Shown here: positions 55,471 through 58,731 of the stretch, piece after piece
Position numbering within the stretch: the first letter of the stretch is position 1
How the letters are laid out: every line of letters begins with the position of its first letter
NCBI GenBank assembly: GCA_000004695.1
Contig: CM000155.2
Location: 2,272,001-2,336,000 of the forward strand
Length of the DNA: 64,000 nucleotides
Direction of reading: 5' to 3'
DNA from: Dictyostelium discoideum
Taxonomy: Eukaryota
Position numbers and translations under genes: made by a program
Notes under the pieces: generated by a model
Told to the model about the DNA's origin: nothing
Database searches by the model: none
What the model saw: only the letters and a program-made list of their open reading frames with translations

Positions 55471-58400
55471 AGCGAAGAATCTAAATCTGATAAAGATGAA
55501 TCCACTCCAATGGAAGTTGATAAAGAATCTAAATCTACTTCCTCAAGTGAAAAACAATCTATAGAGATAAAAGAAGAGAAAGAATCTGAAAAGAAACCTC
55601 AAGATAATGATAATGCCACAGAAAATGGAGTTAAATCACCATCTACAACTAATACTGATTCAAAGTTAACTTCACCTTCTACAGCAACCACAACTACTAC
55701 CACTACCACTACAACAACACCTACTACTACTACTGCGACAACAGTTAAACCATTATCATTAAAGAATCCATGTAAAGAATCTGCTTATTATTTAGTAATT
55801 GTAAACGAAGATTTTGGTAGTCAACAAATCCTTAGAACCTATCCAATGAGCGATGTAAATCAAGGCTCTACAGATGTTTGTTTACCAGGTTTTGCAAATA
55901 AATACGAGTTTAGAGTTATTCATTCAAATCCATCCAATAACTCTTTCTCCTTTGTTAGTGAACCACTCAAATTTACATTAACAAGTAATTTAATTTGGCA
56001 TCAAGCTGATTTCCCTTCATTCTCAACTAGAGTTCAAACTGTATTGACTCGTTTAGTTCAAATGAGAGCAATTAAACAATTGGTAACCAAATATGGTAAA
56101 CAATTAACTAATCTCTCCATCCCATACATTTCAAGAGGTCCTATTCCAACATGGACTCAAGAAAATGATAAGAGTTTATTAGTTGGTGTCTATAAACATG
56201 GTTATGGAAAATATCCTGAAATTTTCTTTGATCCTGAATTAGATTTACTCTCAAATGTAAAGAGAGGTCAACCAAATACTTTTTCACCAAATCCAACTAG
56301 TAATAATGATCAAAATAATAATAATAATAATAATAATAGCAATCAAAACAATACTGATAATATTGATAGTGATAGCGGTAATAATAATAATCAAAACTCT
56401 TCAACTAATCAACAACAACAGCAACAGCAATCTGAAAAGATTCCATCATCCGAATCATTAAGAAGAAGAATCCAAAAGGTTACTGATCAAATCTTGAAAA
56501 AAGAACATAGTGATATGATCATGAAACAACATATGGCTCAACAAAAACTACATCAATTACAACTACAACAACAAATGAAAGAACAAAAAGAAAAAGAATT
56601 TCAACAACAACAAAACCAACCAAACCAACAAAATCAACCAGGTCAACAAAATCAACAAACTCAACATGGTCATAGTGGTAGTCATAAACAAAAATACTCA
56701 AATGATTACTTTGACGATTTCGTTAGTAGATCAGATTTTAGTGGTGGTGATATTTCCGATGTGGAAATTGATGATTATATTAAATCAAAGAAAATGAAAC
56801 ATTCTCATAATAGTTCAAATAATAATAGTAATAATAACAATAATAGTAATAGTAATAATAATAATAACAATAATAATAGTAATAATAATAATAACAGTAC
56901 TAGTAATAGTGGCTACAATAGCGGTAATAATAATAACTATAGCAACAATAGTAGTAATAATAATAACAATAACAATAATAATTCATTCTTTGGTAATAAC
57001 AATAGTAATAACAATAACCCATTCTTTGGTAATAATAACAATAATAATAATAAATTACCATCATTAGATAGAATGATAAATAAGAATGATAATAGTTCAC
57101 ATAGACATCATTCATCTTCAAAACACAGTAAAAGTCAATCTTCAAATCAAAGTTCAAAACCATTTAGCAATAGTAGTAGTAGTAGTAGTAATAATAATAA
57201 CAATTATAATAATAATATTAATAATAATAATAACAATAATAACAATAATAATAATAATACAAATAGTAATATATTACAAATTAGATTACAATGGGAAAAT
57301 AGAATTTATCCAATTTCAATACCAATTTCATCAACAATGGAATCATTAAAGAGATTGTTTATTGTTAAAGCTGGTATTCAATCAGTTGTTTCAAATACAG
57401 GTGAAGATGCAAATAATATTCTTAGATTCTATTATGATGGTCAAGTTGTGCCAATGGGTGTTAAAGTTGTTGATTATATTAGAGATGATCCTCGTATTAC
57501 TGCAGTTTGGGAATCTAAATGGAAGACTATTCAAGTTAAAGGTTTTGAATTTGAAAGTGTTTTAATGAATGTTCAAGATGATACATTATTGGAAGATATT
57601 GTCAAGGCATACTTTATCAATTCTCATCCACCTTATGACATAAAGAATCTTAGAATTGAAGTAAATGGTAAAGTATTGCCATTAAACTCTGATATTGGTA
57701 CCAACAAGATTAAAAATGAATCATACCTATTGATTGTTCCATCACAAGATATTATTCGTGTTTTCGTTACACCATCTTGGGGTGCTGAAAAAGAAACCTA
57801 TGCACTTCATAAACAAACAACAATGCTCTCAAAATTAATGGATTCTTTCTTGAAAAAACATTCATTACAACCAAAACAAATCGATTTCTATATACCACGT
57901 TTAAATTGTTCCCTCTCTGGTGATAAAAACCCTTCACAAATGGGTATTGAAAACGAAACAGAGATTACAGCTATCCTTTTATTGGTACGTGTCGATGCAT
58001 CTTACAATGGTACTACAGTTCCTTACTTTTTAAGTACAACCACTTCTTTTGAATCATTATTCCATCGTTTCTGTGAAAAAGTTAAAATTGATAGGAAATC
58101 TACAATTTTCTCTTATGAAGGTAAACGTTTATTAAATGAACAAACTCCTGAAGGTATTTATATGAAACCTCATGCAAGTATTACTGTAATTAATCATGGT
58201 TCTAATAACAATAACAATAATAATAATATTAATAATAATATGATGGGTAGTGGTATTGGATCACCATCAATTTCAACATCACCTCAACAACGTCAACCAA
58301 ATCTTCCATTATCTCCTTCTCATCATCAACAATCACAACAGCATCACCAACAACAACCATTATCTCCACAACGTCAACAAATTCCAAAATCAACACAACA

Positions 58401-58731
58401 AAAATCTCATCAACAACATCATCAACAACAACAACAGCAACAACAACAAAATCATCACCATCATCATCAATCACCACAACAACACCAATTACCAAGTATT
58501 ATCGAAGTTGAGGTTAAATTAGTAGGTCAAGATGCTGGTAGTTTTATTAAAATGCACACCCAAAATCCATTCCCACTCGATATCTTAATGGATAAATTTT
58601 GTCAAGAACATAACCTCATTAAAAGCCGTACTCTTTTCACTTACAAAGGTCAAAAATTAAATCCAAATGATACTCTTGCAACAATAAATTTACAAGATCA
58701 AGATATTATTCAATGTCATTTGTTAAAATAA
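55471..58731 (+). CDS. CHD remodeller, continuation in the +1 frame after the apparent frameshift (CHDCT2-like region, Asn/Gln-rich tracts, C-terminal ubiquitin-like repeats; includes stop)
   Basis: The frame is open from 55453. ...KSEESKSDKDESTPMEVDKESKS... continues the KSKDDEKS repeat character of the upstream frame. WTQENDKSLLVGVYKHGYGKYPEIFFDPELDL matches the CHD C-terminal CHDCT2 motif. Terminal about 450 aa contain four ubiquitin/SUMO-like repeats. Confidence 0.65.
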   Translation, partial: SEESKSDKDESTPMEVDKESKSTSSSEKQSIEIKEEKESEKKPQDNDNATENGVKSPSTTNTDSKLTSPSTATTTTTTTTTTTPTTTTATTVKPLSLKNPCKESAYYLVIVNEDFGSQQILRTYPMSDVNQGSTDVCLPGFANKYEFRVIHSNPSNNSFSFVSEPLKFTLTSNLIWHQADFPSFSTRVQTVLTRLVQMRAIKQLVTKYGKQLTNLSIPYISRGPIPTWTQENDKSLLVGVYKHGYGKYPEIFFDPELDLLSNVKRGQPNTFSPNPTSNNDQNNNNNNNNSNQNNTDNIDSDSGNNNNQNSSTNQQQQQQQSEKIPSSESLRRRIQKVTDQILKKEHSDMIMKQHMAQQKLHQLQLQQQMKEQKEKEFQQQQNQPNQQNQPGQQNQQTQHGHSGSHKQKYSNDYFDDFVSRSDFSGGDISDVEIDDYIKSKKMKHSHNSSNNNSNNNNNSNSNNNNNNNNSNNNNNSTSNSGYNSGNNNNYSNNSSNNNNNNNNNSFFGNNNSNNNNPFFGNNNNNNNKLPSLDRMINKNDNSSHRHHSSSKHSKSQSSNQSSKPFSNSSSSSSNNNNNYNNNINNNNNNNNNNNNNTNSNILQIRLQWENRIYPISIPISSTMESLKRLFIVKAGIQSVVSNTGEDANNILRFYYDGQVVPMGVKVVDYIRDDPRITAVWESKWKTIQVKGFEFESVLMNVQDDTLLEDIVKAYFINSHPPYDIKNLRIEVNGKVLPLNSDIGTNKIKNESYLLIVPSQDIIRVFVTPSWGAEKETYALHKQTTMLSKLMDSFLKKHSLQPKQIDFYIPRLNCSLSGDKNPSQMGIENETEITAILLLVRVDASYNGTTVPYFLSTTTSFESLFHRFCEKVKIDRKSTIFSYEGKRLLNEQTPEGIYMKPHASITVINHGSNNNNNNNNINNNMMGSGIGSPSISTSPQQRQPNLPLSPSHHQQSQQHHQQQPLSPQRQQIPKSTQQKSHQQHHQQQQQQQQQNHHHHHQSPQQHQLPSIIEVEVKLVGQDAGSFIKMHTQNPFPLDILMDKFCQEHNLIKSRTLFTYKGQKLNPNDTLATINLQDQDIIQCHLLK

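Follow-up and report, generated by a model that had tools for sequence, protein, structure and literature searches.

A C-terminal tail of five integral SUMO-like domains in a type III CHD remodeller of Dictyostelium discoideum, a possible docking platform

The RENi proteins (Rad60 of S. pombe, Esc2 of S. cerevisiae and NIP45/NFATC2IP of mammals) are chromatin and genome-maintenance proteins that end in integral, non-conjugatable SUMO-like domains (SLDs) of the Pfam family Rad60-SLD (PF11976). They have two SLDs, the last of which is the most SUMO-like, a polar N-terminal region and no enzyme domain, and their SLDs are docking sites for the SUMO pathway, namely for the backside of the enzyme Ubc9 and for SMC5/6. 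The second SLD of Esc2 stimulates substrate sumoylation through contact with the Ubc9 backside, and the D68R substitution in Smt3 abolishes binding to that backside (PMC7849368). In a further report, the SLDs of NFATC2IP are described as binding UBC9 and SMC5/6 (PMC11065178). A different arrangement is found in the chromatin-associated enzyme USP7/HAUSP, in which five C-terminal ubiquitin-fold domains (the HUBL array) follow the enzymatic domain; these ubiquitin-like (UBL) domains activate the protease and bind substrates. Among the SNF2-family SUMO readers, PICH, Uls1 and CHD3 are SNF2 or CHD remodellers that are wired to the SUMO system and carry SUMO-interacting motifs (SIMs). Here, we describe a remodeller of the opposite polarity, which itself carries SUMO-like domains. 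It is encoded by a CHD gene on the forward strand of a 64,000-nucleotide stretch of the Dictyostelium discoideum genome (GenBank assembly GCA_000004695.1, contig CM000155.2, positions 2,272,001 to 2,336,000), called the window below and used for all positions unless another sequence is named.

At the level of its published description, ChdC (DDB_G0293012) is matched by this gene. ChdC is the largest of the three CHD proteins of D. discoideum, belongs to type III, has SANT/SLIDE domains and no BRK domain, and carries numerous homopolymer tracts in its long C-terminal part (Platt et al. 2013; PMC3848188). The window gene encodes the domain set of CHD subfamily III (Chromo, SNF2, Helicase_C and a SANT/SLIDE-type region, with only one chromodomain passing in Pfam), and CHD6, CHD7, CHD8 and CHD9 are among the named homologues matched by its ATPase region. 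In agreement with the same paper, no BRK domain was matched by Pfam in any part of the gene at an expectation value (E) of 1 or below. Platt et al. also mention one SUMO-like sequence in ChdC, giving no count, boundaries, conservation or role, which agrees with the view that a UBL tail is not a standard feature of CHD proteins (PMC3848188). A follow-up paper on ChdC (Platt et al. 2017) does not discuss domains, and apart from the 2013 paper we found no mention of SUMO-like domains on an SNF2 or CHD enzyme in the literature searched. That ChdC contains a SUMO-like sequence has been known in outline since 2013; the number, order, age, conservation and portability of the units, and the candidate contact residues, are new. 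We propose that this type III CHD protein ends in a module of five integral SLDs that acts as a docking platform, a combined statement to which we assign a probability of about 0.5. The structural part of the statement is close to certain; the docking step, argued by analogy, is tentative and falls somewhat short of even odds when taken by itself.

A sequence-only reading of the window had proposed that the protein ends in four tandem repeats of 75–100 residues, starting at position 57290. All four of the repeats that it quoted lie in one open reading frame (ORF) and have the ubiquitin fold, but the correct count is five, because the unit lying between the first two repeats quoted, R2, had been overlooked (R1–R5; Table 1). 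The units are about 74–81 residues long, and the array begins at about 57271–57274; position 57290 is out of frame and falls inside the first β strand of R1. The whole tail makes up about 490 residues of a reconstructed product of about 3077 residues. R1–R4 are joined head to tail without linkers, probably as a rod or superdomain of some rigidity, and R5 alone is set apart. The segment between R4 and R5 is about 98 residues long here and about 9 residues long in Acytostelium, and is a lineage-specific low-complexity expansion. Read directly, the units end in ...AVWES, ...IVPSQ, ...ITAIL, ...VINH and ...CHLLK-stop, and none carries Gly-Gly. The lack of such an end indicates that the units can be neither processed nor conjugated and are instead integral SUMO-like domains.

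These ends also bear on whether the array belongs to the remodeller at all. Genes for poly-UBL precursors exist, arrays of the same kind lie outside CHD genes in Cavenderia, and an unexplained frame change is present upstream of the tail, so that a separate gene, or a processed poly-SUMO or poly-ubiquitin precursor fused by chance or mis-assembly, had to be considered. However, no stop codon interrupts the frame from the SLIDE/HTH_CHD1 region to the tail, and the next gene begins only at 59134, which bears out the placement of the repeats in the CHD gene by the sequence-only reading. The GC content stays at the coding level throughout (about 23–38% in coding sequence of this very AT-rich window), whereas the spacers outside the gene have 9–20%. 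The features of a conjugatable SUMO or ubiquitin precursor are missing, given that Gly-Gly processing sites are absent and the units are only 10–21% identical to one another. Finally, the same fusion occurs in Acytostelium. A cleavable precursor or a separate gene is thus excluded as far as sequence evidence reaches, and we regard this explanation as barely credible.

The tail was assigned to a family by Pfam scans and by searches of the PDB. On the whole tail, Rad60-SLD matched in four stretches with 79.8 bits (E 1.3e-22) against a cut-off of 23.8 bits, and the Pfam ubiquitin family matched with 54.3 bits (E 1.2e-14); an array of SUMO-like repeats is far beyond chance. When the units were scanned singly, Rad60-SLD was above its cut-off for R5 (37.3 bits, 2.5e-9) and R4 (26.3 bits, 6.7e-6) and below it for R2 (20.0 bits, 6.1e-4) and R3 (17.3 bits, 4.3e-3). 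The window copy of R1 had no Rad60-SLD match, and one orthologous R1 matches that family at 1.9e-4. The PDB sequence matches of R4 and R5 were SUMO2/3 and Smt3, with SUMO2 ranking first for both units. SUMO2 was found as a tandem chain at E 4e-14 and as a single domain at about 2e-6 (R5, 29% identity), and the R4 profile matched it at about 1e-6. The top PDB matches of the R1 profile were SUMO2 and Smt3 at 0.017–0.1, and that of the R2 profile was the second SLD of Rad60 (3goe; E 0.32 over 64 residues). In profile–profile comparisons with hhalign, R4 and R5 were related with a probability of 95.9% and R3 and R5 with 90.8% (74 columns); R1 and R5 reached 67% in the C-terminal half only, and no significant match was obtained for R2–R5 or R1–R4. 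Because of these weak scores, the assignments of R1 and R2 rest on the Pfam matches, the PDB profile matches and the structure models.

Some of these scores could also be read in favour of a ubiquitin-like role, in which the units, in the manner of Rad23/Dsk2, would be recognised by ubiquitin receptors or the proteasome and thereby regulate how the remodeller is turned over or extracted. R4 scores slightly higher with the ubiquitin family (27.6 bits, 2.5e-6) than with Rad60-SLD, the sole Pfam match of the window copy of R1 is ubiquitin (0.12–0.14), and the top structural matches, given below, are poly-ubiquitin chains. By contrast, Rad60-SLD outscores ubiquitin for R2, R3, R5 and the whole tail. 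The PDB matches listed for R1, R4 and R5 are SUMO/Smt3 or SUMO-tagged fusions and include no ubiquitin, and those listed for R2 are Rad60 SLD2, SUMO2 and one unrelated weak match (E 1). A ubiquitin-like role is accordingly very unlikely. Taken together, the Pfam, PDB and model evidence indicates that all five units have the ubiquitin fold, with a sequence affinity to the SUMO/SLD branch.

The fold was examined in two AlphaFold2 models, which were built from alignments of three sequences and are predicted, not experimental, structures. In the model of the whole tail, five β-β-α-β-β-β units are predicted with a predicted local distance difference test score (pLDDT) of 70–95, the mean being 72 with the linker included; R3 adopts a β-grasp at pLDDT 85–90. 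The model of R1–R2 has a β-grasp in both units, with pLDDT 86 and a predicted template modelling score (pTM) of 0.68. Foldseek matched the whole tail to linear tetra-ubiquitin (7eb9_A; E 4.3e-21, about 315 columns) and to the five-UBL array of USP7 (E 1.5e-13, about 620 columns, 6–7% identity). R1–R2 were matched to linear di-ubiquitin (8t48_A; E 1.9e-10, template modelling score 0.57, 166 columns) with both units covered, and further matches included ISG15, FAT10 and other tandem UBLs. The preference for poly-ubiquitin follows from the multi-domain query, as the PDB holds no tetra-SUMO-like chain. The β-grasp that the sequence-only reading had proposed for each of its repeats, with AlphaFold as the suggested check, is thus upheld by Pfam, by the PDB sequence and profile searches, and by both models with Foldseek, the check itself yielding five β-grasp units. 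Linear (M1-linked) poly-ubiquitin, ISG15 and FAT10, the best structural matches, resemble R1–R4 in their head-to-tail, linker-less arrangement; they differ in being conjugatable modifiers with Gly-Gly ends, and the units of poly-ubiquitin are identical.

We then compared the array with its relatives. An exhaustive HMMER search with R1–R4 matched 38 proteins. The top match, XP_012755273 of Acytostelium subglobosum (2399 residues, 55% identity), has Chromo, SNF2, Helicase_C, HTH_CHD1 and R1–R5 in the order of the window gene, so the check for orthologues proposed along with the repeats has a positive outcome, with the complete tail present colinearly. The dictyostelid tree has Acytostelium on one side and Dictyostelium on the other, and this position together with the shared fusion dates the joining of CHD and SLDs to about the dictyostelid common ancestor. 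Identity to the two orthologous dictyostelid arrays is 47–55% overall. Unit by unit, orthologues are 26–65% identical (43–65% for Acytostelium, 26–60% for Cavenderia; R2, 60–65%), whereas sister units within the tail share only the 10–21% given above. This difference indicates that the five-unit order is old and that every unit has been individualised. Among the 38 matches, colinear R1–R4 were not found outside Dictyostelia. The matches beyond the dictyostelids cover the R4 region only and are many-repeat SLD/ubiquitin proteins that come from dinoflagellates, a chytrid, a plant or metagenomes; the long repeat proteins of the dinoflagellates Biecheleria, Polykrikos and Effrenium (from transcriptomes and genomes), of the chytrid Rhizophlyctis rosea and of metagenomes have 6–11 matched SLD/ubiquitin-like stretches each. 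The protein searches matched nothing from D. discoideum or D. purpureum. PF11976 was found on no other CHD protein among the ATPase-region matches listed, all of which are fragments of <1000 residues that leave full-length CHDs uncovered. Word-indexed protein searches with the tail and with a profile of three species matched just the 359-residue D. dimigraforme protein described below. They missed the Acytostelium and Cavenderia proteins that are present in the collection, and nulls from such searches do not signify absence in nature.

The second HMMER match, XP_004355573 of Cavenderia fasciculata (1264 residues, 47% identity), is named a 'chromo domain-containing protein' and is without any chromo or CHD domain. 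In this protein, R1–R4 follow an N-terminal part that comes from a tandemly duplicated family. That family is locally triplicated, with copies 55–86% identical at 4207–5101 and 5561–9662 of the GL883021.1 stretch examined and no Pfam match. XP_004355573 stops after R4 (...TTVQQ-stop, 14060–14062 of the same stretch, with the array at 13097–14295), and an R5 that is 62% identical to the window R5 comes directly after the annotated stop, in a frame shifted by one base, which reflects either an error in the assembly or a truncation of recent date. A second Cavenderia locus, GL883029.1, contains two more R1–R4 arrays 2 kb apart (10206–11260 and 12021–13967 of the stretch examined). One ends an ORF of 648 residues, behind an unrelated 310-residue region without a Pfam match; the other is broken across several frames, includes XP_004350160 (113 residues) and is probably a pseudogene. 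The array is thus a small gene family in C. fasciculata. No CHD ATPase was found within 10 kb upstream of any Cavenderia array, and these arrays indicate that the ordered array is a portable module. In Dictyostelium dimigraforme (JBTAPM010000006.1), a decayed copy of the 3′ end of ChdC comprises a piece of SLIDE and R1–R3, 66–73% identical (10222–11482 of the stretch examined). It has in-frame stops, frameshifts and no ATPase upstream, and is annotated as a hypothetical protein of 359 residues through an artificial splice model.

The RENi proteins and the remodeller are alike in kind: both are chromatin or genome-maintenance proteins that end in integral, non-conjugatable PF11976 domains, and in both the resemblance to SUMO is greatest in the last domain. 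On this analogy, the array may be a built-in docking platform in the style of Rad60, Esc2 and NIP45, whose SLDs would imitate SUMO and so bind SUMO-pathway enzymes or other readers; candidate partners are the Ubc9 backside, SMC5/6 and other SUMO-pathway proteins. Docking would couple the sites at which ChdC remodels nucleosomes to regulation that depends on SUMO and acts locally, or to partners able to recognise a surface resembling SUMO. The best candidates for contact would be R4, which keeps an acidic residue, and R5, which is tethered by the flexible linker. The residue in R4 is the glutamate of FSYEGK, which aligns with D63 of SUMO2 (FRFDGQ), the position of Smt3 D68 and of the RENi-type acidic residue for the Ubc9 backside, and which is E, E and D in three species. 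Moreover, invariant residues cluster in strand β2 and helix α1 of R2–R5 (5/6 and 9/11 in R3, 6/7 and 11/12 in R5). In SUMO, the β2/α1 face is the surface that binds partner peptides.

The comparison with RENi has limits. Five SLDs here stand behind Chromo, SNF2, Helicase_C and SLIDE, as against two SLDs and no enzyme domain in the RENi proteins, so that the gene is not a RENi member; four of the five SLDs are fused without linkers, and no unit has the full Ubc9-binding constellation. A RENi member proper is encoded separately in the Dictyostelium genome (PMC549199). Several further observations weigh against docking. In the last unit, R5, the position of SUMO2 D63 is taken by K, and in Acytostelium by N. 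Where SUMO2 has the basic SIM-groove residues K33, K35, H37 and K42, R4 and R5 mostly have neutral or acidic ones, and the acidic cluster E79–D85 of SUMO2 is lost in R4. With these residues eroded, neither unit keeps a complete surface of the SUMO type for binding the E2 enzyme or SIMs. The β2/α1 clustering suggests a partner face by a coarse mapping of two to three sequences. The predicted geometry of R1–R4 is closer to that of linear ubiquitin, ISG15 and the USP7 array than to that of a flexible poly-SUMO chain. Last, the presence of the array in non-CHD genes of Cavenderia implies a role that is not specific to remodelling. A scan of the reconstructed protein for SIM-like hydrophobic cores flanked by at least four acidic residues found none.

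Several of the same observations would be accommodated if the tail were a structural or autoregulatory superdomain that works independently of SUMO, in the manner of USP7, and either contacts its own catalytic core, so as to adjust ATPase or remodelling activity, or binds lineage-specific partners by surfaces that have nothing to do with SUMO recognition. The junctions WESKWKT (R1/R2) and IVPSxDII are invariant in the alignment of dictyostelid sequences. Together with the linker-less joining of R1–R4, they point to a fairly fixed geometry, unlike that of a flexible poly-SUMO chain. The pTM of R1–R2 suggests a defined interface, the USP7 HUBL array is a strong Foldseek match, the basic SIM-groove residues are not kept, and the array always moves as an ordered block, also in the non-CHD genes of Cavenderia. 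Like the tail, the UBLs of USP7 are five C-terminal domains behind an enzymatic domain in a chromatin-associated enzyme. This resemblance is architectural only, because at 6–7% identity there is no sequence relationship. The sequence affinity of the tail is instead to SUMO and Rad60-SLD, and no USP7 family of Pfam was matched in the tail scans. In addition, arrays without a CHD ATPase argue against regulation of the ATPase as the sole role. We consider this explanation possible but unlikely.

In a bolder version of docking, the array would be a portable, dictyostelid-specific superdomain of five UBLs that brings in an enzyme of the SUMO pathway, the E2 or another, and ChdC would come with a built-in E2 cofactor. 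We hold this version of docking to be improbable. If it were true, remodelling and local chromatin sumoylation would be coupled in one polypeptide, and the array would confer the same capacity on the unrelated Cavenderia proteins.

The remaining features of the gene are collected in Table 1. It is a single large gene on the forward strand (49369–58731) built from three ORF blocks, and the coding sequence of the window contains long Asn, Gln and Thr runs of the kind typical of Dictyostelium. Blocks 1 and 2 are separated by an intron with a GTAAGT donor, read directly at 52465. Its removal rejoins an SNF2 motif (...KSIK|TEHSIILTGTPLQND) that matches the Acytostelium protein; SNF2-rel_dom has two Pfam matches, the second with 1.2e-24. 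The transition from block 2 to block 3 is less regular. The two blocks overlap in different frames at 55453–55564, within the K/E/D-rich tract. The frame of block 2 runs through nonsense-looking sequence (...RAKNLNLIKMNPLQWKL...) to a stop at 55564, and that of block 3, which is open from 55453 and contains an ORF at 55510–58731 with the stop included, keeps a K/E/S-rich composition. An intron at this place is unlikely. The sole in-frame candidates are a GT at 55428 and an AG at 55461–62 or 55476–77, which would give an intron of just 35 or 50 nucleotides that is not AT-rich. The frame change is probably caused by a one-nucleotide error in an A-run, or by an unusual gene model. Because one and the same Acytostelium protein is colinear with the sequence on either side, blocks 2 and 3 were taken to belong to one gene in which the frame is locally disturbed. 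Downstream, an AT-rich spacer separates the end of the CHD gene from the next gene of the forward strand (59134–60845), which is split by at least one intron and encodes a Peptidase_S28 serine carboxypeptidase with a signal peptide (Pfam 6.8e-9 and 3.5e-43).

Table 1. Features of the CHD gene and of its SUMO-like tail, in window positions
Feature	Position	Strand	Content	Evidence
CHD block 1	49369–52464	+	Acidic/Ser-rich N-terminus, chromodomain, start of SNF2 ATPase	ORF and Pfam
Chromodomain	about 51739–51906	+		Pfam Chromo 2e-11
SNF2 ATPase, first portion	from about 52021	+		Pfam SNF2-rel_dom 9.4e-36
Intron	52465–52591	+	127 nucleotides, A/T-only, GTAAGT...AG	Read directly
CHD block 2	52592–55470	+	Remainder of SNF2, Helicase_C, conserved post-ATPase region, K/E/D-rich tract	Pfam, sequence, tblastn colinearity with the Acytostelium locus
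Helicase_C	about 53084–53419	+		Pfam 3.6e-26
CHD block 3, first part	55471–57270	+	SLIDE/HTH_CHD1, followed by low-complexity tracts rich in Gln, Asn and Ser	Pfam, ORF
SLIDE / HTH_CHD1 DNA-binding region	about 56050–56250	+		Pfam SLIDE 7.9e-6, HTH_CHD1_Hrp3 2.1e-6
R1	57271–57516	+	ILQIRLQWEN...ITAVWES; most divergent unit	
R2	57517–57747	+	KWKTIQVKGF...LLIVPSQ, 77 residues; best conserved among orthologues	
R3	57748–57978	+	DIIRVFVTPSW...EITAIL	
R4	57979–58197	+	LLVRVDASY...ITVINH; acidic E in FSYEGK	
Linker R4–R5	58198–58491	+	About 98 residues, Asn/Gln/His-rich, disordered	pLDDT 28–42
R5	58492–58728	+	SIIEVEVKLVGQD...IIQCHLLK; most SUMO-like; protein C-terminus	
Stop codon	58729–58731	+		

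ChdC governs the spacing of nucleosomes as well as sets of developmental genes, and serves as a Dictyostelium model for the CHD7/CHD8 class, which is linked to CHARGE syndrome and autism. The tail constitutes a large uncharacterised portion of this protein that can readily be deleted or mutated in Dictyostelium. Should the docking step prove false, the tail would still be a well-defined, portable multi-UBL module. If, on the other hand, it docks SUMO-pathway enzymes, it would represent the first SUMO-like domains built into an ATP-dependent remodeller, and would extend the principle of Rad60, Esc2 and NIP45 from two domains to a five-domain array.

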